This document shows, one piece after another, positions 1 to 32,478 of a DNA stretch of 35,253 bases. This stretch comes from a virus (lineage: Duplodnaviria; Heunggongvirae; Uroviricota; Caudoviricetes). Where the stretch lies: IMG/VR virus record IMGVR_UViG_2778261009_000009. One strand, given 5' to 3'. A program made the position numbers and the translations under genes. Each line of letters opens with the position of its first letter. Within the stretch, counting starts at the first letter, position 1. A model generated the notes under the pieces. The model searched no databases and was not told where the DNA came from. It saw only the letters and a list, made by a program, of their open reading frames with translations.

Positions 1-1
1 A

Positions 2-568: not shown

Positions 569-569
569 C

Positions 570-645
570 GATTTCACCTTGTGAACTTTATGGTTGACGA
601 TTTCAATTTGTGATCTTATAGTCGCATTGATTTCAAAATGTGACT
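570..645. promoter_or_regulatory. Three direct copies of a 17-bp element GATTTCA-N4-TGTGA (570-586, 599-615, 629-645; spacing 29-30 bp), putative repressor operators overlapping the early promoter
   Basis: Read directly: gatttcaccttgtgaac / gatttcaatttgtgatc / gatttcaaaatgtgact; each has partial dyad TCA(C/A)-N3-GTGA. Confidence 0.45.
594..622 (+). promoter_or_regulatory. Sigma70-type early rightward promoter (pR-like): TTGACG (594-599), 17-bp spacer, TATAGT (617-622)
   Basis: Near-consensus -35/-10 hexamers with 17-bp spacing about 70 bp upstream of apl-like ORF. Confidence 0.5.
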
Positions 646-694
646 TACAACTACTCGTCAATGTTAAACACACTTAAACAGGAGATGTTGCCTT

Positions 695-916
695 ATGACT
701 CAGCACATTTCAATCACATTAGCTGTCCCATCCATTTCGGTTGAAAAGTACAGTGAACTCACAGGGTTATCTGTAGACACTATCAACAGTATGCTCGCAG
801 ATGGACGCCTTAAGCGGCATCGTCTTCGCAAGGATAAAAAACGTGAAAAGGTAATGATCAACATTGCAGCCATGACAGTGGATGCGCTTGCCGATTCCAA
901 TGTCGTAATCAATTGA
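695..916 (+). CDS. Apl/Cox-like small HTH early regulator/excisionase
   Basis: 73-aa ORF first in rightward operon, divergent from cI; AGGAG 10 nt upstream; HTH-like KYSELTGLSVDTINSMLADGRL. Confidence 0.55.
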   Translation: MTQHISITLAVPSISVEKYSELTGLSVDTINSMLADGRLKRHRLRKDKKREKVMINIAAMTVDALADSNVVIN

Positions 917-948
917 TTCGATTTTGAAATAAAGGGAAGGGGCTGACT

Positions 949-1458
949 ATGTTTGATTATCAAGTTTCCAAACATCCACATTTTGACGAAGCCTGTCGTG
1001 CATTCGCACTGCGCCACAACCTGGTGCGACTGGCAGAACGTGCAGGCATGAATGTACAGATTCTGCGGAACAAGCTGAACCCAGCTCAACCTCATTTATT
1101 AACCGCACCAGAAATCTGGTTGCTTACCGATCTGACTGAAGATTCAACGCTGGTAGATGGCTTTCTGGCACAGATTCACTGCCTGCCATGTGTACCGATT
1201 AATGAGGTGGCAAAAGAGAAACTGCCGCATTATGTCATGAGTGCAACCGCAGAGATCGGGCGTGTTGCTGCAGGTGCGGTATCTGGCGATGTAAAAACCA
1301 GTGCAGGTCGTCGTGATGCTATCAGCAGCATTAACTCTGTAACACGACTGATGGCGCTGGCCGCTGTTTCATTGCAGGCCCGTTTACAGGCTAATCCTGC
1401 GATGGCGAGTGCAGTTGATACCGTGACTGGCCTCGGTGCTTCATTCGGTTTGCTGTGA
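949..1458 (+). CDS. cII: CII-like lysogeny establishment regulator (169 aa, same length as phage 186 CII)
   Basis: Position after apl; strong RBS GGGAAGGGG; recognised from memory as the P2/186 CII family, not database-checked. Confidence 0.65.
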
Positions 1459-1465
1459 GGTGCTT

Positions 1466-1666
1466 ATGCTGACGAAAGAACCATCATTTGCATCGCTGCT
1501 GGTAAAACAAAGTCCGGCAATGCACTACGGTCACGGCTGGATCATGGGTGAGGATGGTAAACGCTGGCATCCGTGCCGTTCACAAGATGAATTGCTGGCA
1601 GAACTATCTACGAAAAAACGGGGGAACAAATGGCTATTGAAGGCGCTGCGGCGACTGTTCCATTAA
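1466..1666 (+). CDS. hypothetical early protein (66 aa)
   Basis: ATG at 1466 preceded by GAGGTG; overlaps cII stop; long form from 1436 rejected. Confidence 0.4.
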   Translation: MLTKEPSFASLLVKQSPAMHYGHGWIMGEDGKRWHPCRSQDELLAELSTKKRGNKWLLKALRRLFH

Positions 1667-1971
1667 GACCCGGTGAACGCCTGAATGGACTTAATCATAT
1701 TGCGGAGTTAAGGGCGAAAGTTTTTGGTTTGAATATTGAGTCAGAGCTTGAGCGGTTTATTAAAGATATGCGTGATCCTCGGGATATCAATAATGAACAA
1801 AATAAACGGGCACTGGCTGCCATATTCTTTATGGCAAAAATTCCAGCTGAACGTCATAGCATCAGCATTAATGAGCTGACCACTGACGAAAAGCGGGAGT
1901 TGATTAAAGCAATGAATCATTTTCGTGCAGTGGTGAGCTTATTTCCCAGACGGCTAACCATGCCGAATTAA
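1630..1971 (+). CDS. hypothetical early protein (113 aa)
   Basis: ORF with GGGGGA RBS; same-strand operon context. Confidence 0.45.
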   Translation: MAIEGAAATVPLRPGERLNGLNHIAELRAKVFGLNIESELERFIKDMRDPRDINNEQNKRALAAIFFMAKIPAERHSISINELTTDEKRELIKAMNHFRAVVSLFPRRLTMPN

Positions 1972-2038
1972 CCAACTAATGAAATTAATGGCGTAAACCC
2001 GCCGGGCATCCCTTTATCTAAATTCAGGAGAATTGCTT

Positions 2039-2272
2039 ATGCGTAATATTGAAACCCTCACGACCAAAACCGGACCGGATGATGCAGGTCTTAATCTTTT
2101 ACTGACAGAGGCTCGTCTGGAAGAACGCCGGGCAAGGGCTGAAGCAATGGCTGCTCGCCTCGATAGCCTGGCGTGTCATATCACCTCCCGCCAGCTAAAC
2201 CACGTCGAAGCGGCAGAACTGCTGCGTGTGACTGCTGAAGCAATCCAGAACGAAGCGCAGGAGATCCACTGA
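2039..2272 (+). CDS. hypothetical early protein (77 aa)
   Basis: ATG at 2039 with AGGAG at 2024-2028; stop overlaps next start. Confidence 0.5.
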   Translation: MRNIETLTTKTGPDDAGLNLLLTEARLEERRARAEAMAARLDSLACHITSRQLNHVEAAELLRVTAEAIQNEAQEIH

Positions 2273-2499
2273 TGGCTGATGCAATGGATCTCGTACAGCA
2301 GCGCGTTGAAGAAGAACGCCAACGCCATATCCGTGCTGCCCGTGCCAAAACGCCGGGCGTGTCCCGCGTGCTTTGCGTTGAGTGTGAAGCGCCAATTCCG
2401 CCAGCACGCCGCCGTGCCATTCCGGGTGTGCAGCTTTGCATTACCTGTCAGGAAATCGCAGAGCTGAAAGGCAAACATTACAACGGAGGTGCTGTATGA
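2272..2499 (+). CDS. TraR/DksA-family C4 zinc-finger protein
   Basis: CVECEAPIPPARRRAIPGVQLCITCQ four-Cys motif; 75 aa; start overlaps previous stop. Confidence 0.7.
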   Translation: MADAMDLVQQRVEEERQRHIRAARAKTPGVSRVLCVECEAPIPPARRRAIPGVQLCITCQEIAELKGKHYNGGAV

Positions 2500-3350
2500 G
2501 CACCATCCTGAAATGGGCAGGAAATAAAACCGCCATAATGTCCGAACTGAAAAAGCATCTTCCTGCTGGCCCGCGACTGGTTGAACCTTTCGCGGGTTCC
2601 TGTGCAGTGATGATGGAGACGGATTACCCCAGCTATCTTGTTGCGGATATTAATCCTGATTTAATCAACCTCTATAAAAAGGTTGCTGCTGATTGTGAGG
2701 CGTTTATATCTCGTGCCAGAGCTTTATTTGAGGAAGCAAACAGGGAGGTGGCTTATTACAACATAAGGCAGGAGTTTAATTACTCCACTGAAATTACTGA
2801 TTTCATGAAAGCGGTATATTTCCTGTATCTCAATCGTCACGGTTACCGTGGTTTATGTCGCTATAACAAGAGCGGGCATTTCAACATTCCCTACGGTAAT
2901 TATAAAAATCCGTATTTCCCTGAAAAAGAAATTCGCGCATTTGCAGAGAAAGCCCAGCGGGCAACGTTTATCTGCGCCAGCTTTGATGAAACGCTGGCGA
3001 TGTTGAAGGTGGGGGATGTGGTGTATTGCGATCCGCCTTATGACGGTACGTTTTCCGGCTATCACACTGATGGTTTCACTGAAGATGATCAGTATCACCT
3101 GGCATCCATTCTTGAACATCGGTCATCAGAAGGACATCCGGTCATTGTTTCTAACAGTAACACGTCTTTGACCCGGTCCCTTTATCGTAATTTCACTCAC
3201 CACTACATCAGGGCGAAACGCAGCATCGGCGTTGCAGCGGGGGAGGGAAAATTTGCAACAGAGATGATTGCCACTAAATCTGCTAATTGGTTTAGTGCCG
3301 ATTTTAGTAGGGGACGTGACTCTACTGTTATTTTCGGGGTGCAAGTGTGA
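2496..3350 (+). CDS. dam: Dam-type N6-adenine DNA methyltransferase
   Basis: N-terminal KWAGNK...EPFAGS and catalytic DPPY motif (CDPPYDG); GGAGG RBS; ATG at 2496 overlaps previous stop. Confidence 0.85.
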
Positions 3351-4177
3351 AAGAAATGCACCACGGAATTCATCATTTCCATGGGACGCCTGTCTGGGGA
3401 AGTGCTGGCGACGTTCATCGTATTGCGGTGAGCGGAGCTGGCGCTTTCGTCTCCTATGTACGACCAGATCAGATTGCGGCGTCCATTCAGCACGCTCAGG
3501 TCGTCGGCATTGATAACGGCGCATTTTCTGCATGGGTGCGTGGGCTAAAAATTAACTGGAGTGATTTTTATAAATGGCTCCTGAACTATTACCACCATCC
3601 TAAGGTCGCTTTTTTTGTCATTCCTGATGTTGTGGACGGAGGTGAACGTGACAATGATGCCCTGATAAACGAAGTTCCGAAAATGTTCTACGGGAAGGCA
3701 ACTCCCGTCTGGCATCTGCACGAGTCAATCGATCGGCTTATCGAGCTATGTCGTGAATGGCCTCGTGTCTGCTTTGGATCGTCTGGTGAATATGCGGCTA
3801 TCAGAACTGCGCACTGGCATCGTCGTATGCAGGACGCTTTTGAAGCAATTTATTGCCGACACAATTTCAAAACAGCTGTTCATGGTTTGCGCATGCTTGA
3901 CGGTCGTGTGTTGGGAAATTACCCACTGGCGACTGCCGACAGTACAAATCTTGCCTGCAATGTCCCCAAATTTAATAGCAAATATCCTGAGCTGACGCGG
4001 GCTATTCAGGAGGCTGAGTATTCGCGCAATCTGACGGAAAAGGAGCTGAAAGCTGTCATTCTGAAAAACCGTTGCGCAATTTTAAAAGGTGCAATTGAAG
4101 CTGTTCGCCCACCTTCAGTTTCTGATTGGCTGTCGAATGGTTTGCAGCCTTCACAGCTCGAACTGGAGATTGCGTAA
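3347..4177 (+). CDS. TGT-fold (tRNA-guanine transglycosylase-like, possibly DpdA-like) protein; hypothesis
   Basis: 276-aa ORF with motifs resembling TGT catalytic-Asp segments (VVGIDNGAF ~ LTDSGGFQ; FFVIPDVV ~ MIFDEC; GLRMLDGR ~ GIDMFDC); no CxCxxC zinc motif; start overlaps dam stop. Confidence 0.45.
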
Positions 4178-6518
4178 TGAACTACAGCTATTCCTGGAAT
4201 GCTGAGAAAAAAGCAATCAATCCTTACGTAGAGACGGAAGAGCAATCTTCAGTTTCTGCGCTTTCAAACCTGATCGCTCTGTACGCTGCCGATAACGAGC
4301 AGGAACAGCTGCGCCGCGAGGCACTGAGTGATCAGGTCTGGGAGCGTTATTTCTTTAATGAATCCCGTGATCCTGTCCAGCGCGAAATGGAGCAGGATAA
4401 GCTCATTAGTCGGGCAAAGCTGGCGCATGAGCAGCAGCGTTTTAATCCAGATATGGTCATTCTGGCGGACGTTAATGCCCAGCCTTCCCATATCAGCAAG
4501 CCACTGATGCAACGTATTGAATACTTCAGCAGCCTGGGCAGGCCAAAGGCTTATTCCCGCTATTTGCGTGAGACGATTAAGCCATGTCTGGAACGGCTGG
4601 AGCATGTACGCGACTGTCAGCTATCCACTTCTTTTCGCTTTATGGCAAGCCATGAAGGGCTGGACGGCCTGCTGATCCTGCCTGAAATGAGTCAGGATCA
4701 GGTGAAACGCCTGTCCACCCTGGTAGCTGCGCATATGAGCATGTGCCTTGATGCAGCTTGTGGCGATTTGTATGTCACCGATGACGTTAAGCCAGAAGAA
4801 ATCCGCAAGACATGGGAAAAGGTGGCAGCGGAAACCCTGCGTCTGGATGTTATCCCGCCTGCGTTTGAGCAACTCCGCCGGAAAAGAAACCGCCGTAAAC
4901 CCGTGCCCTATGAACTCATTCCGGGTTCGCTGGCGCGTATGTTGTGCGCTGACTGGTGGTACCGGAAATTATGGAAGATGCGTTGCGAATGGCGGGAAGA
5001 GCAGTTGCGTGCTGTCTGCCTGGTCAGCAAAAAGCATCTCCCTATGTCAGCTATGAAGCCGTGATGCATAAACGTGAGCAGCGCCGTAAGTCGCTGGAGT
5101 TTTTTCGTTCTCATGAACTGGTGAACGAAGACGGCGACACGCTGGACATGGAGGATGTGGTAAACGCCAGCAGCAGCAACCCTGCGCATCGCCGCAATGA
5201 GATGATGGCCTGTGTTAAAGGCCTGGAGCTTATCGCGGAAATGCGCGGTGACTGCGCCGTTTTCTACACCATCACCTGTCCGTCACGTTTCCATTCCACG
5301 CTAAATAATGGCAGGCCCAACCCAACTTGGACAAATGCGACGGTAAGACAAAGCAGTGATTATCTGGTCGGCATGTTTGCTGCATTTCGTAAGGCGATGC
5401 ACAAAGCCGGATTGCGGTGGTATGGCGTGCGGGTGGCTGAGCCGCATCATGACGGTACAGTTCACTGGCACCTGTTGTGTTTTATGCGCAAAAAAGACCG
5501 CCGCGCCATCACTGCATTACTGCGTAAGTTTGCCATCCGTGAAGACCGCGAGGAACTGGGCAATAACACTGGGCCGCGCTTTAAGTCTGAGTTGATTAAC
5601 CCGCGCAAAGGTACGCCAACAAGCTACATCGCGAAATACATCAGTAAGAACATTGACGGGCGTGGTCTGGCTGGCGAGATCAGCAAGGAAACGGGGAAAT
5701 CCCTGCGTGATAATGCTGAATACGTTAATGCCTGGGCGTCTCTGCATCGTGTTCAGCAATTCCGCTTCTTTGGCATTCCGGGGCGTCAGGCTTACCGTGA
5801 ACTGCGATTGCTGGCTGGTCAGGCGGCAAGGCAACAGGGGGACAAAAAAGCAGGTGCGCCGGTACTGGATAACCCGCGCCTTGATGCCATCCTGGCTGCT
5901 GCTGATGCTGGTTGTTTTGCCACCTACATCATGAAGCAGGGCGGCGTACTGGTTCCCCGCAAATATCACCTCATCAGAACCGCTTATGAAATCAACGAAG
6001 AGCCGACCGCCTATGGCGATCACGGCATTCGTATTTATGGCATCTGGTCACCTATTGCAGAGGGCAAGATCTGCACTCATGCCGTGAAGTGGAAAATGGT
6101 TCGTAAGGCCGTTGATGTTCAGGAGGCGGCAGCCGACCAGGGCGCTTGCGCCCCTTGGACTCGTGGCAATAACTGTCCCCCTGTTGAAAATTTGAACCAA
6201 TCAGGGGGCGATTTACCAGAAGCCAGTGGGCCGGAGTCGCTGCCGGATCTTCATAATCTGAGCGCGAAGGAACGACGGGAGCTGACGGCGCGGCTGAGAT
6301 TGGTAAAACCTAAGCGGCGGAAAGGGTACAAACAGCAGATTAGCAATCATCAGCGCCAGCAGCTTGATGCTGAACTGAGGTCTAGGGGGTTCGATGCGAG
6401 TGATACCGAGGTGGATCTGCTTTTGCGTGGTGGCAGTATCCCGTCCGGGGCCGGGCTGCGTTTGTTCTATCGAAACCAGCGCCTGCAGGAAGATGATAAA
6501 TGGCGGCAGTGGTACTAA
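4177..6518 (+). CDS. A: Replication initiation protein A (HUH rolling-circle endonuclease), interrupted by a frame change near 5029-5034 (ORFs 4177..5064 and 4956..6518)
   Basis: [16 protein letters not shown] motif and [12 protein letters not shown] tyrosine motif in the downstream frame; both frames resemble P2 A across the junction as recalled from memory. Confidence 0.8.
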
Positions 6519-6550
6519 TGTGAGAGTATTTTATATTCATATTCAAAAAT

Positions 6551-6582
6551 GCCAGCCTAACAAATCAGGCTGACATTTTTTT
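6551..6582. terminator. Bidirectional rho-independent terminator between gene A and convergent cargo operon
   Basis: Stem cagcct/aggctg (6553-6558/6567-6572), T7 run 6576-6582 on plus, A5 run 6545-6549 giving T-run on minus. Confidence 0.5.
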
Positions 6583-6589
6583 ACTTACT

Positions 6590-7048
6590 CTATTTAGTTT
6601 TTTCAATCATAGTGCTTTCGGCTTTTGAATATACACTATTAATAGTGGTGATTTTTGTAGTTAATGCTATACAAACTAGACTCAGAAGTAAGACACCAAT
6701 TGATATTGTATTGTTGCTGAGTATTATATGTAGACAAATAGAATAAATTGCAACAATGACTATTGCTACGAAAACAAAGATTGCCATTAAATTATGTGCT
6801 TTGATGTAGTCCTCAGGGGTTAATATGTAGCTTATGTTTATGATTATAAATAAAATTAAAAATGCTCCCCCAATCCATTTGGGTAGGGCTGTTTCTTTTT
6901 TTGATACTGCAGGTGTGGTTCTTGGGATCGATTCTACGAAGGATTTAAGATTTCCCATGTCAGTATTGTTTAATGCTGCACTTTCTGCTTCGAATTTTGA
7001 AACAGTGCCATCAGGAAGGGTTGTAGTCCAGCTTATTTTTCCTGTCAT
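6590..7048 (-). CDS. cargo membrane protein (152 aa; about 55-aa soluble N-terminus then about 3 TM helices), unknown function
   Basis: AT-rich ORF; start ATG overlaps upstream stop (ATGA); AGGGA RBS; hydrophobic segments FLILFIIINISYIL, MAIFVFVAIVIVAIYSI, IGVLLLSLVCIAL. Confidence 0.6.
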   Translation of the reverse strand: MTGKISWTTTLPDGTVSKFEAESAALNNTDMGNLKSFVESIPRTTPAVSKKETALPKWIGGAFLILFIIINISYILTPEDYIKAHNLMAIFVFVAIVIVAIYSICLHIILSNNTISIGVLLLSLVCIALTTKITTINSVYSKAESTMIEKTK

Positions 7049-7419
7049 ACAACATCCCTTATTCTGAATATTCTATTAAAATCAATATCAACAGCAGAGT
7101 TCGACCACTCACTCTTTTGATTATCTTTAATTAGAATTGCTTTGTTCTCGTCAAAGATTATATTTGTACCACTAAACTCAATATGAGATAGGTCTCCTCT
7201 AAATATTTTTTGCTCAACGCTTTTGAATGCATCTTTTAATGATGCACACTCTTTTCTGAATAATGGTTTGGGGCTGTAAGTCCCTAAGTTTATAACTATT
7301 ACGCCACTACCATCTTTAGCAGGGTGAATGGAGAAAGATAGCGCTAATCCGTGATAGTGGGATTGTATTTTCTTCATTAATTTACGAACGTAATCATCAT
7401 ACCGCTTTCTATATATCAT
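7045..7419 (-). CDS. cargo soluble protein (124 aa), unknown function, first gene of two-gene operon
   Basis: AT-rich ORF translationally coupled to 6590..7048; candidate promoter TCGACA-18-TAATAT upstream on minus strand. Confidence 0.55.
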   Translation of the reverse strand: MIYRKRYDDYVRKLMKKIQSHYHGLALSFSIHPAKDGSGVIVINLGTYSPKPLFRKECASLKDAFKSVEQKIFRGDLSHIEFSGTNIIFDENKAILIKDNQKSEWSNSAVDIDFNRIFRIRDVV

Positions 7420-7583
7420 TTTTTTCTTAATGGTTAGTTGTTTTTCGTATATTACAATACTAATAAATATATTGTCGATTCAAATAAAACGTTGTAGCCA
7501 AGCGGAAGAATTTTAGTTTACGGATGGTTGTTTTTTGATCTCCATAGCCGAAGGCAATCTGAACTATAGTGATCATAAAAGTG

Positions 7584-7627
7584 TTTACATTCATGGAACT
7601 ACGCATATACTGTATATGTGTACAGTG
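7584..7627 (+). promoter_or_regulatory. SOS-regulated promoter: -35 TTTACA (7584-7589), -10 TATACT (7606-7611), LexA box TACTGTATATGTGTACAGTG (7608-7627)
   Basis: Perfect CTGT-N8-ACAG palindrome (7610-7625) overlapping the -10 and start site, about 30 bp upstream of a strong RBS. Confidence 0.7.
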
Positions 7628-7657
7628 CTTTCTGTGTGTTTGGTGATAGGAGGGAAG

Positions 7658-7846
7658 ATGCAAGACTATTTTTTGGAGTCGTTGAAGCTCCAGCGCATTG
7701 ATTTTTTTGTCAAGCTTGTGGCGGCTAGTGAGTGTGATGATGAAGAGAAGCGACTGGCTATCCAGTGGGTTTCTGAGTTAACGGATGAGCTGATGGCAAA
7801 GATTCGTGCTCATGAATACAACCGCTCAATGGATCTTCCCAGTTAA
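7658..7846 (+). CDS. SOS-controlled small protein (62 aa), candidate Tum/DinI-like antirepressor
   Basis: ATG at 7658 with TAGGAGGGA RBS immediately downstream of LexA box; acidic small protein; weak resemblance to DinI C-terminus. Confidence 0.55.
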   Translation: MQDYFLESLKLQRIDFFVKLVAASECDDEEKRLAIQWVSELTDELMAKIRAHEYNRSMDLPS

Positions 7847-7924
7847 CAGCAGGAACGTTGCTGGCGTGAGAACTAGCTTCTTACGTCAGCAAGGTTAAAC
7901 AACGAGTACAACGAGGCGTTAGCC

Positions 7925-8191
7925 ATGGGTAAATCCAACAGCAAATTCCAGACCGTTTATGAGGGGCAGGCGCTTGAACGTGACGAACTTGGCGGATGGG
8001 TTTTGTTTCAGCGTCGTGTAGAGTATGGCGGCAAGTACTGGATGGGAATAACCATGGATGATGTGTTTTTGTTTGGCTCCGATCATCCTGTATCAGGTAG
8101 TGAGGCGATGGTCTTCATCATTGATTATGAGGGCGAGCAGCTCAGACGGTCTTTACCCGTTGGATACACCCCACAAATGCCGCTTTTCTGA
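7925..8191 (+). CDS. SOS-operon second gene (88 aa), unknown function
   Basis: ORF with GAGG RBS, same strand, followed by strong terminator. Confidence 0.5.
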   Translation: MGKSNSKFQTVYEGQALERDELGGWVLFQRRVEYGGKYWMGITMDDVFLFGSDHPVSGSEAMVFIIDYEGEQLRRSLPVGYTPQMPLF

Positions 8192-8258
8192 CAACCGGCT
8201 GGGTGCATGTCTATGCTGCATGAGATCGCATGATCGTTTGAGGATCGTTTTCGCTGAG

Positions 8259-8286
8259 GCCCGCCAGAACTGGCGGGCTTTTGCTT
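8259..8286 (+). terminator. rho-independent terminator of the SOS operon
   Basis: 8-bp GC stem gcccgcca/tggcgggc, loop gaac, followed by TTTTGCTT. Confidence 0.75.
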
Positions 8287-8327
8287 ATGTCATGCAGGTG
8301 CATGAAAATCGCTCCATAAAGCGGGCA

Positions 8328-8346
8328 GGCGTGGCGGGGATACGAG
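8328..8346. other. candidate cos site (cohesive-end sequence) GGCGTGGCGGGGATACGAG
   Basis: First 13 nt match the P2/186-family 19-nt cohesive end as I recall it (GGCG(A/T)GGCGGGGAAAGCA...); lies in non-coding DNA between right-end genes and the Q side. Confidence 0.35.
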
Positions 8347-8433
8347 CGCGCGCAATAGGGTTATGTACAATAAATTTTTGACGATCTTCGAGTGTTATTA
8401 GCTTGAGGCTGTCAGGGAAAATGAATACAATAA

Positions 8434-8465
8434 GAAGCGCCTAGCAGAATGTTACTAGGCGCTTC
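8434..8465 (-). terminator. perfect 11-bp inverted repeat hairpin (gaagcgcctag ... ctaggcgcttc), possible terminator of the minus-strand cargo operon
   Basis: Read directly; followed on minus strand by T-rich stretch; no T-run on plus. Confidence 0.35.
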
Positions 8466-8498
8466 GAATATATAACCTGTATGACTTTCTTAACCTAC

Positions 8499-8606
8499 TT
8501 ATCTTTTTGATTTCTTCTTCGTATCATCGTGATCGAATACTTGGCGTGTAGGCGGCTTGCTGGGTGGTGGCGGCGGCGGTAAATTAGATTTCTCATTTTT
8601 GCTCAT
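8499..8606 (-). CDS. polyproline mini-ORF 3 (35 aa): MSKNEKSNLPPPPPPSKPPTRQVFDHDDTKKKSKR
   Basis: Hand-translated; own AGGA RBS; start lies inside the end of mini-ORF 2; paralogous to two upstream mini-ORFs. Confidence 0.35.
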   Translation of the reverse strand: MSKNEKSNLPPPPPPSKPPTRQVFDHDDTKKKSKR

Positions 8607-8724
8607 CTTTATTTTTCCTATTTTTTGGATCATTGCCATAGCTTTCTCTAACTAACCGAGTGATTGGCGGTTTAGGTGGTGGTGGTGGTGCTTCATTTTT
8701 TTTAGGATTTTTGTGTTCGGTCAT
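8593..8724 (-). CDS. polyproline mini-ORF 2 (43 aa): MTEHKNPKKNEAPPPPPKPPITRLVRESYGNDPKNRKNKDEQK
   Basis: In-frame portion of track ORF 8593..8778 starting at ATG 8724 with AAGGA RBS; overlaps neighbours in other frames. Confidence 0.4.
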   Translation of the reverse strand: MTEHKNPKKNEAPPPPPKPPITRLVRESYGNDPKNRKNKDEQK

Positions 8725-8839
8725 TTTTATCGTCCTTTCTGTCTCTTCGTAGTTGCCTTGCTTTTGAATCATCTTCAATAACGATCCTTCTTGCGGGTGG
8801 AGTAGGCCGAGGAGGTGGTGGCGGTAACGGTTTGGTCAT
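8702..8839 (-). CDS. polyproline mini-ORF 1 (45 aa): MTKPLPPPPPRPTPPARRIVIEDDSKARQLRRDRKDDKNDRTQKS
   Basis: Hand-translated; ATG overlaps stop of upstream membrane-protein gene (TAATG); AGGAGA RBS 5 nt upstream. Confidence 0.4.
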   Translation of the reverse strand: MTKPLPPPPPRPTPPARRIVIEDDSKARQLRRDRKDDKNDRTQKS

Positions 8840-9489
8840 TAAGTTCTCCTGACATTTTCAATAGGTATTATCAAATAGTTAGGGTCGTTATTTTTCCGCG
8901 GTGATGCTGCATCTAAATCAGCTAAAAGAAATATGACTACTGCTGCGATAATTGGAATCCATGACCAGACAAGATACTTTGTTGACTCAAATAGTTTACT
9001 GGAACGTTCCTCATTGATATTACTGTTCCAGCTAGCACATTCTCTGATTTCTTGATGAATAAACTCCCAAAGTTTATTATCAGGGTTATAACTTTCATCG
9101 TATGTAAGTCCATTGTCATCGCAATATTTTTTATATTTCACTTCGTAACTAATCAGATCTATGTGATAATCATGCAATGCTTTAGGTGCAGGGCAATACT
9201 TAAATTCATTTCCCCATATGACTTGTTTCAACAGAATTGATGATACAAGAACTAAACCAAATGAAATTGCGGTACATAAAAATACTAGGCAAGCTAGCCT
9301 TGGGTGGGATTCATAAGATGTATTTTTGGCGAGATAAGTGAGTATAGTTGCGGTAATGACAACTAATCCGAATTCGGCTTGAGCGCGAGTATGTATCTTG
9401 TCTTTATTCTCAATTTCTGAGAAATAAAGTTTTTCGTAAAATTCTAATGCTTTATCCTTTTTCATTTTTAGATTCAGTGTGATGTCCAT
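8839..9489 (-). CDS. cargo membrane protein (216 aa; two N-proximal TM helices, soluble Cys-containing middle domain, C-terminal TM helix), unknown function
   Basis: AT-rich ORF between portal terminator and mini-ORFs; hydrophobic segments FGLVVITATILTYL, LACLVFLCTAISFGLVLVSSILL, VWSWIPIIAAVVIFLL. Confidence 0.6.
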   Translation of the reverse strand: MDITLNLKMKKDKALEFYEKLYFSEIENKDKIHTRAQAEFGLVVITATILTYLAKNTSYESHPRLACLVFLCTAISFGLVLVSSILLKQVIWGNEFKYCPAPKALHDYHIDLISYEVKYKKYCDDNGLTYDESYNPDNKLWEFIHQEIRECASWNSNINEERSSKLFESTKYLVWSWIPIIAAVVIFLLADLDAASPRKNNDPNYLIIPIENVRRT

Positions 9490-9510
9490 GTATCAAACAT
9501 ATCACGATAA

Positions 9511-9540
9511 CAAAAAAAGAAAAGCCGCAATTCTGCGGCT
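9511..9540 (-). terminator. rho-independent terminator downstream of portal gene Q
   Basis: Stem agccgca/tgcggct (9523-9529/9534-9540) followed on minus strand by T-tract (plus A-run 9511-9522). Confidence 0.6.
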
Positions 9541-9549
9541 GTTGGGAAG

Positions 9550-10587
9550 CTAATCTAGCGATAATTCGTAATTTGTGAACCCTATCGCGTTTTTATCCAG
9601 CCATTTATTAAGCTCCTCAAAGCGTCTCTGAAGCGGAATAAGTTCATTACGAACGAATACGCGGCTGGCCTTCTCCACATCCCCAAATCCCCCAACATTA
9701 TTAGGCATAATCCCCATCATTTGCGGTGGCACACGATGCGCCGCCATCATGTCATCCCGGCTCACGTTCTTGATGTTTAGAAACTCATCCTTCGCCGCGA
9801 CTTCTGACAGAGGAATGATCTGAAGCCCATCCTTTTTGCCGTTAGGCGAGTACATAAACAGGTTGCGGAAGTTACCCGGTCCTTTGGCGCTTTTCATCGC
9901 ATTGCGGAGGTTGTTCACATCCTCCTGGTTCTGCGCGGCATCGGTCATGTACATGATGAAGCCTGCATGACTACCGTTAATGTAATACTTCCGGCGGAAC
10001 AGCGTGGCGGACTCGTTGAGCAAAGCGGATGGGATGGCAGAAAGATAGCCGGGCAGGCCGTAGATCTCCTGATTAATATCCGGTTCCATCAGATGAAAAA
10101 TGCTGCCTTTCGAGAACTGATACGGCTGGGTTGTCATACCGTATTGCACAAACCAGTAGGTATCCAGGTCTAACCCGCGTCGGGTATATTTTGCCAGAGC
10201 AGGCTCAAGGGCGATAACTTCACCGAAGCGGTTCGTGCGTTTCTCCAAGTAGGCGTTACCAAATACCAGATAGTCCTGCACAAAACGTGAAAAAGCCTGC
10301 TGGCTGAGCAGCGGGTGAGGGATGTAGGTACTGGTCAGTATGTTGCATTTCACCGCAATTGGTGAACTGTGATGCACGGCAGCGCGGAAGGTGCGCGCCA
10401 GTCCGTCAAAGCTCACTGGCGGCTCATACCAGCGATCTGTCTGTACGCATTCCACATAGTCCAGCAGTTCTCGGCGGTCCAGAACAGGAACGGGATCGCC
10501 GAAGCTGAATGCTTCGGCTGTAGTTTGACTTTTAAGCTGGATCTGTTTTGTCGCCGAAGCGCGGTTCTTCTTACTCTTTCCCATCAA
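9550..10587 (-). CDS. Q: portal protein (capsid portal, gpQ-like)
   Basis: 345-aa ORF colinear with P2 Q; start overlaps terminase stop (ATGATG with TGA). Confidence 0.85.
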   Translation of the reverse strand: MMGKSKKNRASATKQIQLKSQTTAEAFSFGDPVPVLDRRELLDYVECVQTDRWYEPPVSFDGLARTFRAAVHHSSPIAVKCNILTSTYIPHPLLSQQAFSRFVQDYLVFGNAYLEKRTNRFGEVIALEPALAKYTRRGLDLDTYWFVQYGMTTQPYQFSKGSIFHLMEPDINQEIYGLPGYLSAIPSALLNESATLFRRKYYINGSHAGFIMYMTDAAQNQEDVNNLRNAMKSAKGPGNFRNLFMYSPNGKKDGLQIIPLSEVAAKDEFLNIKNVSRDDMMAAHRVPPQMMGIMPNNVGGFGDVEKASRVFVRNELIPLQRRFEELNKWLDKNAIGFTNYELSLD

Positions 10588-12350
10588 AAAATCTCCACAA
10601 TATTGCTGGTATTGGCGGACTCGCCCTGCAGCGGTTCGTTAAACAGTGCGTGCATTGTTGCCCAGGCCAGATCGGCGTGACTGGCTTCTTCGCTGCGGCT
10701 GGCTTCATAGGTCGGGCGGTTGCCGCTGGCGGTGGTGGCGCGACGGATTGCCATGAATGACTGCGCTATGTCGGTGTGTCCGGCGTCAAACTCCAGACGG
10801 CGGTGGCTGATAATGTCGTAGGCCTTGAGTACCAGGGCGTTTTTAACATTGGGGTTGTAGACAAACTCCCGGACGGCAGGAAAGAACGCTTTTACGTTCT
10901 CGTAAACCCCGTGGCCGACCCCAGTTGAGTCGATGCCGATATAGGTCACGTTGTACTGTTCGGTCAGTTTTTTGATTGCGTCAGCCTGGGCGCGGAAGTC
11001 CATCCCGCGCCACTGGTGACGCTCAAGAATGCGGAACTTACCGCCCGGCACGGCTGGCGGTGCCACCACCACGCATCCGGCACTGTCGCCGTTCTGCGTA
11101 CCTTTTGCCGGGTCATAACCGATCCATACTTCGCGCCAGCCAAACGGGCGAAGGGCCAGTGCATGAAAGTCGGTCCAGACTTCCCAACTGTCCACCATGC
11201 ACGCCTGCAGCTCGCTGAGCGGAAACACGGACGCGAGATCGTCCACAAACTCGCACATCAGCAGGTTCTGGTATTCGTCCGGGCTGTACTCCATGCGCAA
11301 CTGGTCAAGGTCGAACAGGTTGCAGCCGCCGCGCACCGCATCTTCCACGGTGACTATCTGGCGGTATTGCCCGTCTGCGCACAGCAGGCCGGGGGCCAGA
11401 TTGCTGTGGGACAGGTCGATGTCCACCTTGTCAGCTTTGTTGCGTCCACGGTTGAACAGCGCACCGGACCAGAACGGATAAGCACTGTGGGTCAGGCTGG
11501 ATGGCGTGGAAAAATAGGTTTGTCGCCATTTCTTGTGAATAGCCATCCCGGAAGCCACTTTGCGCAGCTCCTGGAATTTCGGTATCCAGAAATATTCATC
11601 CAGATACAGGTTGCCGTGATAACTCTGGGCCGTGCGGGCATTGGTGCCGAGGAAGTAAAGCGTGGCCCCATTAGGAAGCACCATCGGATCGCCTTTTAGC
11701 TCCACCTCGACTTCTTTGGCGAAGTCGATGATGTATTGTTTAAAGACGTGGGCCTGAGCCTTACTGGCAGAAAGGAAAATCTGGTTACGTCCGGTCAGCA
11801 GGGCGTCAATCAGGGCTTCACGGGCAAAATAGAAGGTCGCGCCGATCTGGCGTGACTTCAGCAGGTTGCGGATGCGGTTGGTTTTTCCGGCTTCCCACCA
11901 GTGGCGCTGGTAGTTGAACATGGAGGAATGGAAGATTTCTTCCAGCTTCTCAATCTGTTCATCGTTGAAGACATTCTTTTCCGGCTGACGGCGCGGGCCC
12001 TTGTTGCGGTTGGCGACGTTAGGATTTAAGTCGGCTTCGTTGCCGCCATTGTTAAACTTGCCGATCCGCGCGTGGCGCTCCGACTGGCGCGCCAGCAGGT
12101 CAATCTCTTTGAAATCTTTCCCTTCTTTGTGCTCCTTCATAATGAGCTGGCAGTAGCGTGCGGCGGTGGTGAGCTGCATCTGATCCAGCGGCCCATAGTC
12201 ACCCCACTTGTCGCGTTTTTTCCAGCTGTGAACGGTTGCAACTTTCTCGCCCAGCATTTCAGCAATGCGGGCGACGCGGTATCCCTGAAAGTACAGCAGC
12301 ATGGCCTGCCGACGGGGATCGAGATCTGCGGGTGTCAGTGTGGTGTTCAT
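10584..12350 (-). CDS. P: terminase large (ATPase) subunit, gpP-like
   Basis: 588-aa ORF divergent from capsid operon, position and size as P2 P. Confidence 0.85.
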   Translation of the reverse strand: MNTTLTPADLDPRRQAMLLYFQGYRVARIAEMLGEKVATVHSWKKRDKWGDYGPLDQMQLTTAARYCQLIMKEHKEGKDFKEIDLLARQSERHARIGKFNNGGNEADLNPNVANRNKGPRRQPEKNVFNDEQIEKLEEIFHSSMFNYQRHWWEAGKTNRIRNLLKSRQIGATFYFAREALIDALLTGRNQIFLSASKAQAHVFKQYIIDFAKEVEVELKGDPMVLPNGATLYFLGTNARTAQSYHGNLYLDEYFWIPKFQELRKVASGMAIHKKWRQTYFSTPSSLTHSAYPFWSGALFNRGRNKADKVDIDLSHSNLAPGLLCADGQYRQIVTVEDAVRGGCNLFDLDQLRMEYSPDEYQNLLMCEFVDDLASVFPLSELQACMVDSWEVWTDFHALALRPFGWREVWIGYDPAKGTQNGDSAGCVVVAPPAVPGGKFRILERHQWRGMDFRAQADAIKKLTEQYNVTYIGIDSTGVGHGVYENVKAFFPAVREFVYNPNVKNALVLKAYDIISHRRLEFDAGHTDIAQSFMAIRRATTASGNRPTYEASRSEEASHADLAWATMHALFNEPLQGESANTSNIVEIF

Positions 12351-12395
12351 GGCACAAACCTACAGCCTTGAATGAAGGCTTTCCCCGCCTGCGGT

Positions 12396-12413
12396 TTGTG
12401 TGGTTGTCGGTAC
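12396..12413 (+). promoter_or_regulatory. late promoter activator site TGT-N12-ACA (Ogr/Delta-type) upstream of capsid operon
   Basis: tgt gtggttgtcggt aca read directly; about 95 bp upstream of O start. Confidence 0.5.
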
Positions 12414-12492
12414 AAATACCGCGCATTGTTTCACTGCCCCTATCACCGCAACCATAAGGCTCCAGTAAGTTTTTTCTAACGGAGCACGGCTC

Positions 12493-13326
12493 ATGACAGT
12501 GAAAGCAAAGCGTTTTCGCATCGGGGTGGAAGGTGCCACCACCGACGGACGCGAAATCCAGCGTGAATGGCTGGAACAGATGGCAGCCAGCTATAACCCG
12601 GCGGTGTATACCGCGCTGATTAACCTTGAGCACATCAAGTCTTATCTGCCGGACAGCACCTTTAACCGCTACGGCAAGGTGACGGCGCTGTTTGCTGAAG
12701 AAATCACGGAAGGTCCGCTGGCAGGCAAGATGGCGCTGTATGCTGACGTTGAGCCAACGGAGTCCCTGGTGGAACTGGTGAAAAAAGGCCAGAAATTATT
12801 CACCTCTATGGAAGTCAGCCCGAAGTTCGCTGATACGGGCAAAGCCTACCTGGTCGGCCTGGCTGCCACTGATGACCCTGCCAGTCTGGGCACTGAAATG
12901 CTGACATTCAGCGCCAGTGCAGCCCATAACCCGCTGGCAAACCGCAAGCAGAATCCCGCCAATCTCTTTACCGCCGCAGAGGAAACGGTGATCGAACTGG
13001 AAGAAGTCCAGGACGACAAACCGTCCCTGTTTGCCCGCGTCACGGCGCTGTTTACCAAAAAAGAGCAGTCCGATGACGCCCGGTTCTCTGATGTGCATAA
13101 GGCCGTGGAGCTGGTCGCCACTGAGCAGCAGAACCTGAGCGCACGCACCGAAAAATCCCTGTCTGAGCAGGAAGAACGCCTGTCTGAGCTGGAGACTGCC
13201 CTGCAGGCACAGCAAACCGCCTTTAACGAACTGGTGGACAAGCTGAGTCATGAAGACAGCCGCCAGGACTACCGCCAGCGTGCAACAGGCGGTAACGCCC
13301 CCGCTGACACTCTGACCAATTGCTGA
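12493..13326 (+). CDS. O: capsid scaffolding protein, gpO-like
   Basis: 277-aa ORF, first gene of rightward late operon, acidic/Gln-rich C-terminal region. Confidence 0.85.
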   Translation: MTVKAKRFRIGVEGATTDGREIQREWLEQMAASYNPAVYTALINLEHIKSYLPDSTFNRYGKVTALFAEEITEGPLAGKMALYADVEPTESLVELVKKGQKLFTSMEVSPKFADTGKAYLVGLAATDDPASLGTEMLTFSASAAHNPLANRKQNPANLFTAAEETVIELEEVQDDKPSLFARVTALFTKKEQSDDARFSDVHKAVELVATEQQNLSARTEKSLSEQEERLSELETALQAQQTAFNELVDKLSHEDSRQDYRQRATGGNAPADTLTNC

Positions 13327-13342
13327 TGGAGCACAAAACCCG

Positions 13343-14401
13343 ATGAAGAAGAATACCCGCTTTGCTTTTAACGCTTACCTGCAGCAGCTGGCGCGTCTGA
13401 ACGGTGTGGCAGTTGAAGAACTGTCCAGCAAATTCACTGTGGAGCCGTCTGTGCAGCAGACGCTGGAAGACCAGATCCAGCAGTCCGCCGCTTTCCTGAC
13501 GCTGATTAACGTCACGCCAGTGACTGAGCAGTCCGGTCAGTTGCTGGGGCTGGGTGTTGGCAGCACCATTGCCGGAACCACTGATACCACAGCTAAAGAG
13601 CGTGAGCCTGTCGATCCGACGCTGATGGTCGATGTGGAATATAAATGCGAGCAGACTAACTTTGACACGGTGCTGACCTACGCGAAGCTGGACCTGTGGG
13701 CGAAGTTTCAGGATTTCCAGGTGCGTATCCGTGACGCCATCGTGAAACGTCAGGCACTGGACCGCATCATGATCGGCTTTAACGGCGTGAAGCGTGCGAA
13801 AACCTCCAACCGTAGCGAAAACCCGCTGCTGCAGGATGTGAACAAAGGCTGGCTGCAGAAAATCCGTGAGGATGCACCGGATCACGTCATGGGCAGCACC
13901 ACCACGGGCGGTGAAACCACACCGGGCGCGGTGAAAGTCGGGAAAGGTGGCGAATATGCCAACCTGGACGCCGTGGTGATGGATGCCGTCAATGAGCTTA
14001 TCGACGTGGTCTACCAGGACGATGACGATCTGGTGGTGATTTGCGGTCGTGAGCTGCTATCTGACAAGTATTTCCCGCTGGTCAACAAAGAGCAGGAAAA
14101 CAGTGAAAAACTGGCTGCCGATATGATCATCAGTCAGAAACGCATGGGTGGCCTGCAGGCCGTGCGTGCGCCGTTCTTCCCGCCGAATGCGCTGCTGATC
14201 ACCCGTCTGGATAACCTGTCCATCTATTGGCAGGAGGACACCCGCCGCCGTTCAGTTATCGACAACCCGAAACGTGACCGGATTGAAAACTTTGAATCCG
14301 TTAACGAAGCCTATGTGGTTGAGGACTACCGCTGCGCCGCACTGGTGGAAAACATCCAGATTGGTGATTTCAGCGCCGCCGCAGCAGAAGCCGGAGCGTA
14401 A
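13343..14401 (+). CDS. N: major capsid protein, gpN-like
   Basis: 352-aa ORF following scaffold gene. Confidence 0.85.
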   Translation: MKKNTRFAFNAYLQQLARLNGVAVEELSSKFTVEPSVQQTLEDQIQQSAAFLTLINVTPVTEQSGQLLGLGVGSTIAGTTDTTAKEREPVDPTLMVDVEYKCEQTNFDTVLTYAKLDLWAKFQDFQVRIRDAIVKRQALDRIMIGFNGVKRAKTSNRSENPLLQDVNKGWLQKIREDAPDHVMGSTTTGGETTPGAVKVGKGGEYANLDAVVMDAVNELIDVVYQDDDDLVVICGRELLSDKYFPLVNKEQENSEKLAADMIISQKRMGGLQAVRAPFFPPNALLITRLDNLSIYWQEDTRRRSVIDNPKRDRIENFESVNEAYVVEDYRCAALVENIQIGDFSAAAAEAGA

Positions 14402-14404
14402 CCT

Positions 14405-15055
14405 ATGAGCCTGAGTCCCGCACGGCAGCATCGCCTGCGCGTTCAGGCTGAACAGGCCGCCCGCGAGGGCGGCAGTGTTCGCCACGCGTCGGGCTATGAC
14501 CTGATGTTGCTGCAACTGGCGGAAGATCGCCGCCGTCTCAAGGGCGTTCAGTCCACGGTCAAAAAAGCGGAAATCAAAGTGGAGCTGCTGCCGAAGTACG
14601 CCGCCTGGGCGGAGGGTGTCCTGGCTGCCGGAGGCACTCAACAGGATGACGTGCTGATGTACGTGATGCTGTGGCGCATTGATGCCGGAGATTATGCCGG
14701 GGCGCTGGAGATCGGGCGTCATGCCCTGCGTCATGGCTGGGTGATGCCGCTGGGTAACCGCAACGTGCAGACCGTGATGGCAGAGGAAATGGCAGACGCA
14801 GCGCAGAGCGCAATGCTTGCCGCCACCGGCTTTGATGCCGATCTGTTACTGCAGACACTGGAACTAACAGACGGTCTGGATATGCCGGACCAGTCACGGG
14901 CGCGTCTGCATAAAGCGATTGGCGCTGTCCTGAGTGAAAGCAATCCGGCTTCCGCCCTTAATCATCTCAACCATGCGTTACAGCTCGATCCCCGCTGTGG
15001 CGTGAAAAAAGACAAACAGCAGCTGGAGCGCAGACTGCGCAATGACAGCCGCTGA
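14405..15055 (+). CDS. M: terminase small (endonuclease) subunit, gpM-like
   Basis: 216-aa ORF following capsid gene, P2 order. Confidence 0.8.
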   Translation: MSLSPARQHRLRVQAEQAAREGGSVRHASGYDLMLLQLAEDRRRLKGVQSTVKKAEIKVELLPKYAAWAEGVLAAGGTQQDDVLMYVMLWRIDAGDYAGALEIGRHALRHGWVMPLGNRNVQTVMAEEMADAAQSAMLAATGFDADLLLQTLELTDGLDMPDQSRARLHKAIGAVLSESNPASALNHLNHALQLDPRCGVKKDKQQLERRLRNDSR

Positions 15056-15150
15056 CAGAACGTGCCCCCGCGCACGGGCGGCACGGGGTGGCGAAAGGCT
15101 CTGCCACATCAAAACCCCGTCCACCGCCCTTTATTTCAGGAGAAAGCAGC

Positions 15151-15615
15151 ATGAAGTTTGTTGCGCCAGAACAGGCACCGGAACAGGCGGAAATCATCAG
15201 AAATACGCCGTTCTGGCCTGATGTGGACCTGTCGGAGTTTCGCAGTGTCATGCGCACTGACGGCACGGTGACGCCGCCGCGTTTAAAGCAGGTTGCGCTG
15301 TCGGCAATTTCGGAGGTCAACGCAGAGCTGTATGAGTTTCGCAGACGTCAGCAGATGCTGGGGTATGTGTCGCTGGCTGAGGTTCCGGCGGAACAGCTGG
15401 ACGGCAAAAGTGAGCGCATTCAGCACTATTTCAACGCGGTTTACTGCTGGGCACGCGCCATGCTCAACGAACGATACCAGGACTATGACGCCACGGCATC
15501 CGGTGTGAAGCGAGGCGAGGAACTGGCGGAATCCTGCGGTGATTTGTGGCGTGACGCCCGCTGGGCCATCAGCCGGGTGCAGGATGCGCCGCACTGCACA
15601 GTGGAGCTTATCTGA
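15151..15615 (+). CDS. L: head completion/stabilization protein, gpL-like
   Basis: ATG at 15151 with CAGGAGAAA RBS; 154 aa; longer form from 15088 rejected. Confidence 0.8.
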   Translation: MKFVAPEQAPEQAEIIRNTPFWPDVDLSEFRSVMRTDGTVTPPRLKQVALSAISEVNAELYEFRRRQQMLGYVSLAEVPAEQLDGKSERIQHYFNAVYCWARAMLNERYQDYDATASGVKRGEELAESCGDLWRDARWAISRVQDAPHCTVELI

Positions 15616-15818
15616 TGAAAGTGCGTGCGCATCAGTATGACACGGTGGACGCGCTTTGCTGGCGTCATTACGGGCGCACGCAGGGTGTCACGGAGCAGGT
15701 ACTGAAGGCAAATCCGGGGCTTGCCGAATATGGCCCCTTTTTACCTCACGGGCTGCAGGTGGAGCTGCCGGACATTCCGACCACCACCACCGTGCAGACC
15801 GTCCAGCTATGGGACTGA
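15615..15818 (+). CDS. X: tail protein X (gpX-like, 67 aa)
   Basis: Size and position as P2 X; start overlaps L stop. Confidence 0.8.
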   Translation: MKVRAHQYDTVDALCWRHYGRTQGVTEQVLKANPGLAEYGPFLPHGLQVELPDIPTTTTVQTVQLWD

Positions 15819-15821
15819 ATT

Positions 15822-16037
15822 ATGACGCTTGAGCGAATCAGCGCCTTTATCACGTACTGCATCGCCGTTGTGCTGGCCTGGCTGGGCGATTTGTCCATCA
15901 AGGATGCCTCAACGCTGGGCGGCCTGATGATTGGTGTGCTGATGCTGGCTATCAACTGGTACTACAAACACAAAGCCTACCAGCTTCTGCGCGACGGGCA
16001 GATCTCGCGGGAGGACTATGAATCCATCAATCGTTAA
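15822..16037 (+). CDS. holin (small two-TM membrane protein)
   Basis: 71-aa ORF with two hydrophobic segments and charged C-terminus, directly upstream of endolysin. Confidence 0.7.
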   Translation: MTLERISAFITYCIAVVLAWLGDLSIKDASTLGGLMIGVLMLAINWYYKHKAYQLLRDGQISREDYESINR

Positions 16038-16530
16038 ACGCTGCCTTGTCGGGGCCGTGCTGGCTATTGCTGCCACGCTGCCGGGTTTTCAGCAGCTTCA
16101 CACCTCCGTGGAAGGGCTGAAACTGATTACCGATTACGAAGGTTGTCGTCTGCAGCCGTATCAGTGCAGCGCGGGTGTCTGGACCGACGGCATTGGTAAT
16201 ACGTCGGGCGTCATTCCCGACAAAACCATTACGGAGCGACAGGCAGCAGAAGGGCTGATCTCCAACGTGCTGCGTGTGGAGCGGGCGCTGGAAAGGTGTG
16301 TGAAGCAACAGCCGCCGCAGAAGGTGTATGACGCTGCGGTGTCGTTTGCCTTCAACGTGGGTACGGGCAATGCCTGCAGTTCCACGCTGGTGAAATTGCT
16401 CAATCAGCGGCGCTGGGCGGATGCGTGCCGACAGTTGCCGCGCTGGGTGTATGTAAAAGGTGTGTTTAATCAGGGGCTGGATAACCGCCGTGCGCGGGAG
16501 ATGGCCTGGTGCTTACAGGGAGCAAACTGA
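16018..16530 (+). CDS. endolysin, lysozyme with N-terminal signal-anchor-release-like segment (SAR endolysin, P1 Lyz-like)
   Basis: Gly/Ala-rich hydrophobic N-terminus CLVGAVLAIAATLPGF followed by EGCRLQPYQCSAGVWTDGIGNT lysozyme motif. Confidence 0.8.
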   Translation: MNPSIVKRCLVGAVLAIAATLPGFQQLHTSVEGLKLITDYEGCRLQPYQCSAGVWTDGIGNTSGVIPDKTITERQAAEGLISNVLRVERALERCVKQQPPQKVYDAAVSFAFNVGTGNACSSTLVKLLNQRRWADACRQLPRWVYVKGVFNQGLDNRRAREMAWCLQGAN

Positions 16531-16531
16531 A

Positions 16532-17334: not shown

Positions 17335-17467
17335 CGGTGATCTGAACGCGTTGCAGGATGAAACGGAGGCCGCCTGGGCGGTCTGTGCAGACAAAGTGGA
17401 CATGATTATTGCGTGTCAGGAGCGAAACAGTGAACAAACCACAATCCCTGCGCCACGCCCTCAATAA
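17177..17467 (+). CDS. lysC: LysC, Rz1-like outer-membrane lipoprotein spanin (GTG start), overlapping lysB in another frame
   Basis: Signal peptide with lipobox LTLSGC, Pro-rich mature part; starts inside lysB. Confidence 0.7.
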   Translation: MRTRIYAAGLILLCLLTLSGCGNVRRSPEVQLTVSGCPRVTPCRLDQAAPRTNGDLNALQDETEAAWAVCADKVDMIIACQERNSEQTTIPAPRPQ

Positions 17468-32398: not shown

Positions 32399-32478
32399 CG
32401 CTGCCGCCATTTTGTCGCCATCGTTAAAAAACAGTGCTTCTAACATCATGATTTTAAACAGCTTAAATTTCAGGCAAC

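Follow-up and report, generated by a model that had tools for sequence, protein, structure and literature searches.

Introduction

The cut site for DNA packaging (cos) has been characterised experimentally in phage P2, in phage 186 and in the satellite P4. Cohesive ends of this family are G+C-rich, 19 nt long, and start with GGCG(A/T)GGCGGGG; in the GenBank records, cosL of P2 reads GGCGAGGCGGGGAAAGCAC, and the cos of 186 and PSP3 reads GGCGTGGCGGGGAAAGCAT. A 55-bp cos core conserved between P2 and P4 is credited to Ziermann & Calendar (1990) in PMC3931495 and PMC5694545, and cos is the only region that P2-like and P4-like elements have in common (PMC9122126). On the canonical map, the gpA side precedes cos, and Q-P and O-N-M come after it, with Q-P and O-N-M-L arranged as divergent operons.

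The interval between cos and the portal gene Q is itself a described hotspot. For P2-like phages, PMC5694545 traces it to Dodd & Egan (1996) and Nakayama (1999). In phiCTX, the slot is occupied by the ctx cytotoxin gene. Rousset et al. 2022 (PMC9122126) defined a cos-proximal defence hotspot between gpA and gpQ, which has been taken up again in a 2026 preprint.

We analysed a stretch of 35,253 nt recorded in IMG/VR as IMGVR_UViG_2778261009_000009, hereafter the window. A prediction made from its sequence had proposed a 19-mer as a candidate cosN, with a cargo operon inserted between this site and the portal gene. We report that the 19-mer is almost certainly the DNA-packaging cut site of a P2-like prophage. 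The cos site and its hotspot are known biology: the 19-mer was published for Salmonella phage SEN8, and the slot, known from the work on phiCTX and 186 onward, received its systematic treatment from Rousset et al. What is new here is the cargo, a conserved and uncharacterised module composed of a membrane protein gene and three overlapping polyproline micro-ORFs.

Results

A predicted P2-family cohesive end in non-coding DNA

Direct reading of the window places GGCGTGGCGGGGATACGAG at 8328-8346, on the + strand. The 19-mer is single-copy in the window, even with up to 3 mismatches tolerated, and a match was found in 0 of 100 dinucleotide-preserving shuffles. The original prediction stated that its first 13 nt reproduced a P2/186-family end, and that it lay outside coding sequences. 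The consensus used was right: the cos features of GenBank give 13/13 identities over this segment for 186 and PSP3, and 12/13 for P2. The ORF map likewise places the 19-mer in non-coding DNA, between an 88-aa ORF (7925..8191, + strand) and the cargo operon. Over its full length, it shares 15/19 positions with the 186/PSP3 cohesive end, 14/19 with P2 cosL and 14/19 with P4, and it has the G+C-rich composition, the 19-nt length and the GGCG(A/T)GGCGGGG start of the family. Divergence is concentrated in the 3′ third, which reads ATACGAG in the window versus AAAGCAC/T in the experimentally sequenced ends; among the last six positions, 4 to 5 differ from P2 and 186. By analogy with these phages, nicks are predicted between 8327 and 8328 on the top strand, and between 8346 and 8347 on the bottom strand, the latter position being extrapolated because the 3′ end of cosN differs from that of P2 and 186.

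Variants of this 3′ third were seen elsewhere. In related P2-like and P4-like elements (L014, L016 and L017), the site reads GGCGTGGCGGGGCTACGAG, with a C rather than an A at position 13. Stenotrophomonas phage Smp131 carries GGCGTGGCGGGGAGACGAG, an 18/19 match to the window cosN, and its variant of cosN, GAGACGAG, ends with GACGAG. Judging from these sequences, the 3′ third of cosN is a lineage-specific variant series, common to helpers and a satellite.

The 19-mer, together with the CGCGCGC that follows it, is identical (26/26) to the start of the record of Salmonella phage SEN8 (KT630647.2; Felsduovirus), which is a plaque-forming phage. The SEN8 genome announcement (PMC5427200) calls this sequence cos, identified during annotation, by homology. 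In both SEN8 and SEN1, the last base of the record corresponds to window position 8327. In Escherichia phage Cartapus (OV696611.1), a 59-bp feature labelled “putative cos” contains the same 26 bp, minus its last base; its annotation is worded as homologous to the cos of P2, and is therefore also homology-based. Virion preparations of E. coli LF82 contain detectable Cartapus DNA (PMC9928086), and the large terminase of Cartapus is 99.7% identical to that of the window, so that a near-identical pair of terminase and cos appears to be functional. One of the outcomes named as able to undo the original prediction, a faulty consensus together with relatives devoid of the sequence, did not materialise: the consensus was right, and the sequence is present in SEN8 and Cartapus. 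A full-text literature search with the 19-mer returned only the SEN8 announcement, and found no physical end mapping for a cosN of the ATACGAG type. The ends of IMG/VR contigs were used as a proxy for physical ends, and none starts or stops at the 19-mer among the loci listed.

Conservation around the predicted cut

An alignment of 180 bp was built over the circularised junctions of P2, 186, P4, SEN8 and Fels-2, together with the window. This comparison with P2, 186 and P4, which the original prediction had proposed as a check, bore it out: segment 8299-8353 aligns without gaps, with 43/55 identities to P2, 44/55 to P4 and 45/55 to 186, and 51/55 to SEN8. As a yardstick, P2 and 186 share 48/55 positions. 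The core is made up of 29 bp (TGCAT.AAAAC...AAGCGGGCR), the 19-nt cosN and NGCGCGC, with no insertion or deletion across the aligned phages. Coordinates of the features are collected in Table 1.

On the gpA side of cosN, TGCATG occurs at 8204, 8217 and 8299, GCATG at 8228 and CATGCA at 8291. The TGCATG and GCATG motifs align with counterparts in P2, 186 and P4. The cos region is the densest TGCAT cluster of the window, and holds 3 of its 7 TGCATG copies. Judged by these motifs, this side of the site is presumably the terminase recognition region, similar to a cosB. The same block contains a hairpin that terminates the upstream + strand operon, which consists of a 62-aa ORF (7658..7846) and the 88-aa ORF mentioned above. 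An equivalent hairpin is found at the same place in the alignment for 186, P4, SEN8 and Fels-2, and the 186 annotation names it t95b.

On the Q side, the CGCGCGC element is present in P2, 186, P4, SEN8 and Fels-2. A GCGSGCR sequence precedes each predicted nick on its own strand (GCGGGCA on the top strand, GCGCGCG on the bottom strand), as it does in P2, 186 and P4. The pair, at 8321-8353, is two-fold symmetric and brackets cosN, and it coincides with the limit of the 7-bp conservation on the Q side. We infer from this arrangement that CGCGCGC would be the symmetric half-site for the bottom-strand nick. A half-site placed 5′ of each nick would explain why exactly 7 bp are conserved beyond cosN.

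To see how far this conservation extends in a population, IMG/VR was scanned for exact matches to the 19-mer. At least 120 loci were found, and 120 were stacked in register against the window. Identity to the window stays at background up to 8202, reaches 80-100% at most positions of 8203-8353, with a handful of variable sites below 80%, and returns to background from 8354 on. The conserved unit is therefore 151 bp long, with 125 bp on the gpA side of cosN and 7 bp on the Q side; the extra conservation on the gpA (or psu) side, with almost none on the Q side, is that of a P2-family cos. Among 5426 complete E. coli genomes, 1278 contain the cos block.

Table 1. Features of the cos region, of the cargo slot and of the neighbouring packaging genes (window coordinates)
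Feature	Position	Strand	Basis
gpA-side (right-end) part of the cos region	8203..8327	+	in-register conservation; motifs align with P2, 186 and P4
G+C-rich hairpin, GCCCGCCAG-AA-CTGGCGGGC followed by TTTTG	8259..8283	+	read from the sequence
55-bp cos core (29 bp, 19-nt cosN, 7 bp)	8299..8353	+	ungapped alignment to P2-family cos
cosN, predicted 19-nt 5′-protruding cohesive end	8328..8346	+	identical to annotated cos of SEN8; alignment with P2, 186 and P4
CGCGCGC, sole conserved bases on the Q side	8347..8353	+	identity falls from >80% to background between 8353 and 8354
Intrinsic terminator of the cargo operon	8434..8465	-	13-bp stem, T-rich tail
Polyproline micro-ORF C, 35 aa, MSKNEKSNLPPPPPPSKPPTRQVFDHDDTKKKSKR	8499..8606	-	conserved in L014-L017
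Polyproline micro-ORF B, 43 aa from the conserved ATG	8593..8724	-	ORF map, conservation in relatives
Polyproline micro-ORF A, 45 aa	8702..8839	-	start overlaps the stop of the membrane protein gene (TAATG)
Cargo membrane protein, 208 aa	8839..9465	-	ORF; homologues
tQ-like terminator, directly after the Q stop	9523..9540	-	aligned with tQ of P2 and tW of 186
Portal gene Q	9550..10587	-	Pfam Phage_portal, E = 2.7e-18; 61% to P2 Q, 96% to Cartapus Q
Large terminase gene P, 588 aa, intact	10584..12350	-	99.7% to Cartapus TermL, 63% to P2 gpP
gpM-type terminase endonuclease subunit, 216 aa, intact	14405..15055	+	PGAP counterpart in E. coli WS0115A

Gene order and state of the prophage

The window is a P2-like prophage. 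Compared with E. coli WS0115A, it gave three colinear blastn segments of 91-98% identity, the largest covering 8203-18251 at 97.7%. Left of cos lies the early region, with CI, CII and Fil up to gene A in the PGAP annotation of WS0115A; right of cos lies the late region, with Q and P, then scaffold, capsid and M. From 8328 rightward, the + strand is colinear with the standard P2 map, in which cosL comes first and Q and P come next, encoded on the other strand. The two terminase subunits cognate to such a site, gpP and gpM, are both encoded full length in the window. All this evidence converges with the sequence comparisons: the proposal that the 19-mer is a cosN is supported by the 19-mer itself, the 55-bp core, the TGCATG motifs, the map position, the intact terminase genes and the annotations of SEN8 and Cartapus.

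Three further observations were made along the prophage. A second island of low GC (30-37%) is present on the gpA side, at 6590-7419 on the - strand, at the position of old/tin in P2; its two genes encode a predicted membrane protein of 152 aa and a protein of 124 aa (phrog_18061), and it fills the gpA-side half of the hotspot. A full-length gene for the RybB sRNA is found at 32476-32554 (- strand; Rfam RF00110, 105 bits), just past the last late genes of the phage, and probably marks the attR/host junction of the prophage. Rfam and tRNA scans found nothing at the cos/cargo locus.

The slot between cos and Q

The original prediction placed the cargo operon in the interval that separates cos from the 3′ end of Q, and the ORF map confirms it; the operon would thus start 8 bp from the left cohesive end of mature DNA. 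In the window, the distance from the end of cosN to the Q stop is 1203 bp (8347-9549), or 1196 bp when counted from 8354. The corresponding figure for P2 had been put at about 100 bp; the measured distance is 167 bp, or 160 bp past the 7-bp flank, and it is about 170 bp in 186. Counted from the end of the 7-bp flank to the Q stop, the slot is 160-171 bp long in P2, 186, PSP3 and SEN1, 810 bp in Cartapus, about 1850 bp in Fels-2 and about 2190 bp in SEN8. It ranged between 138 and 3516 bp (median 1654) in 86 IMG/VR loci, only 9 of which had an empty slot.

About 90% of the relatives with the same cosN hold 0.5-3.5 kb of cargo in this place. The 78 filled slots, window included, fell into 51 DNA clusters, and the cargo of the window was common to only 1 other locus. 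Conserved flanks, cos on one side and Q on the other, therefore enclose a hypervariable and non-homologous interior, as in a hotspot. Among the genes annotated at this place in relatives are Abi-alpha, AIPR, a retron RT and its effector, DUF4145 and an HNH-like gene. In the window, GC content is 33-42% across 8360-9550, versus 50-58% in core genes. The tQ-like terminator is kept and forms the Q-side border of the variable slot, which thus extends from 8354 to about 9522. The original prediction had implied that cargo next to cos was an oddity; given the share of filled slots and the published hotspot, this did not hold: phages of this lineage normally carry cargo between cos and the portal gene, as has been described before.

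The cargo operon

The cargo is a four-gene operon of low GC on the - strand, downstream of tQ, which converges on the cos site and is closed by its own strong terminator. Its first gene encodes the membrane protein. The longest ORF has 216 aa, starting from 9489, and the start at 9465 (208 aa) is probably the true one because homologues begin at the second ATG. The three micro-ORFs that follow overlap one another, and each encodes a PPPPP(P) run and then (T/A)R.(V/I).(E/D), the full motif being PPPPP..P.(T/A)R.(V/I).(E/D). A promoter search for the operon gave a single candidate (9579..9552, - strand), upstream of tQ, which was no better than expected from shuffled sequences.

The whole module is also found in the same slot of P2-like prophages from Cedecea and from a metagenome, in a Pantoea locus near an Ogr/Delta gene, and in a P4-like satellite of Enterobacter, where it lies between int and psu/cos. 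That satellite (L017, positions 1-8627 of a contig of Enterobacter pseudoroggenkampii) has a P4-type integrase, psu and a cos end; its polyproline module sits in a cos-adjacent hotspot, and points the same way with respect to cos as its counterpart in the window. The module was present in 2 of the 120 IMG/VR loci collected with the 19-mer. Of the 1278 E. coli genomes that contain the cos block, only 6 have it.

A profile search with the membrane protein gave 957 representative homologues. Among the homologues with a length of 240 aa or more, about half have the polyproline motif fused to their C-terminus. A scan of species-representative genomes revealed one distant cargo locus only, in a Campylobacterota MAG, where a homologue 25% identical to the membrane protein is followed by an overlapping polyproline ORF of 33 aa. 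The occurrence of split and fused forms, together with a conservation that reaches this MAG, indicates that the micro-ORFs are real partners of the membrane protein. The ORFs beside the Campylobacterota pair look TIR-like and caspase-like when their sequence motifs are judged by eye.

Searches for a known function gave little. Against the cargo proteins, PADLOC-DB v2 gave no match at E ≤ 0.1, and Pfam and NCBIfam gave nothing above threshold; the sole family match was PHROG 36961, of unknown function. The AF2 model of the membrane protein is all-helical and confident (pLDDT 86), and a Foldseek search of this model against the PDB gave no match with E < 0.09. Matches of the model to long-helix, BAR-like PDB entries were non-significant, and were rejected as meaningless. 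A blastn search of 8380-9540 against 50,697 phage records gave no match, none of the cargo accessions and keywords tried was present in the supplements of Rousset 2022, and a literature search combining polyproline, EF-P and anti-phage terms returned nothing relevant.

Discussion

Taken as a whole, we regard it as very likely that 8203-8353 is the cos of a P2-like (Peduoviridae) prophage of the Fels-2/SEN8/Cartapus type, cut by its own terminase and adjoining a recombinational cargo slot. According to this scheme, gpM and gpP, the phage terminase, would attach to the 125 bp with the TGCATG motifs, on the gpA side of cosN, and introduce the two predicted staggered nicks, leaving 19-nt 5′ overhangs of sequence GGCGTGGCGGGGATACGAG. 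Mature DNA would then begin with cosN, the 7 conserved bp and the cargo, which would place the operon at the extreme left of the packaged genome. If only the 7 bp of CGCGCGC are needed on the Q side, nothing would constrain the DNA between 8354 and the Q terminator, and the slot would act as a recombinational cargo site, with exchange by recombination between cos and Q as conserved anchors. The polyproline module found beside cos in a P4-like satellite fits such recombination at anchors, because cos is the only region shared by the two types of elements.

Could the site be a cos by descent, which has become a silent relic in this copy, usable at most by a superinfecting relative? Replication gene A is split in two frames (4126..5064 and 4956..6518, spanning 4126-6518), due to a frameshift near 5029 where the window has a run of A5, versus A6 in the intact gene of E. 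coli WS0115A, and because of this frameshift the prophage may never package its own DNA. The window also begins inside the prophage, with int and attL outside its coverage. Yet the cos block is intact and matches that of functional phages, P, Q and M are full length, and a single-base difference in a homopolymer may be a sequencing error, so that the split of gene A may reflect either a replication-defective prophage or such an error. We give this possibility a minor share of the probability only, and prefer a cos that is cut by the terminase of the prophage.

The diverged 3′ part of cosN, ATACGAG, raises the question of whether a genuine cos might be cut here at other positions, or with another overhang length, than in P2 and 186. 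The differences at its end, noted above, and the variability of position 13 among related loci (ATACGAG or CTACGAG, and GACGAG in Smp131) would be in line with this. The spacing of the flanking GCGSGCR sequences is nevertheless exactly preserved, which favours the same 19-nt stagger, and the 55-bp core is free of indels in P2, 186, P4, SEN8, Fels-2 and the window, so that we find an altered cut quite improbable. As for a chance similarity between G+C-rich sequences, or a block conserved for another reason, such as a purely terminating or regulatory role for the operon upstream, the hairpin at 8259-8283 is the one element that speaks for it; the absence of any match in the shuffled sequences, the canonical map position and a 55-bp ungapped similarity with three cos sites that were characterised by experiment, that of the satellite P4 included, effectively refute it.

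Identification of cos fixes the origin of packaging and, with it, where the mature genome of the prophage begins on the left and finishes on the right. For annotation, it provides exact limits to the cos module (8203-8353) and to the cargo slot (8354 to about 9522). The population data add that the constraint of 7 bp on the Q side fits with a GCGSGCR half-site 5′ of each nick.

What the cargo does is another matter. From its location in a known defence hotspot alone, one might guess at a role as an anti-phage or exclusion module. We tentatively suggest, as one possibility among others, that it is an undescribed mobile accessory system, in which a helical membrane protein with 3 TM segments is joined by three translationally coupled polyproline micro-proteins. 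Such a system would plausibly act in anti-phage defence or abortive infection, and would shuttle between the cos-adjacent hotspots of P2-like helpers and P4-like satellites; the peptides would be a regulatory or partner element, whose synthesis may depend on EF-P. Within this proposal, the function of the cargo and the part ascribed to EF-P are pure conjecture. The membrane protein and polyproline micro-protein module is nonetheless a candidate for defence testing, and the sole part of the locus that might repay more work.

Compared with described systems, the slot of the window has the same position, the same hypervariable interior and the same low GC as those of phiCTX (ctx) and phiRSY1 (ORF1-4), and as the hotspot of Rousset et al. 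2022. Relatives also hold genes of defence type in this position. The polyproline module of the window has no match in the supplementary tables of Rousset 2022. With the cos of P2, 186/PSP3 and P4, the site shares the first 12-13 nt of cosN, the GCGSGCR flanks, the upstream TGCAT..AAAAC motif, the TGCATG repeats and the location next to Q. It departs from them by the last six positions of cosN, and the window departs from P2, 186, PSP3 and SEN1 by a slot several times longer than theirs. The closest likeness is to SEN8 and Cartapus, which agree with the window in the 26 bp of the site, in its map position and in the presence of cargo genes between cos and Q, but which carry other genes there, a hypothetical protein and an HNH-like gene in SEN8, and DUF4145 in Cartapus.
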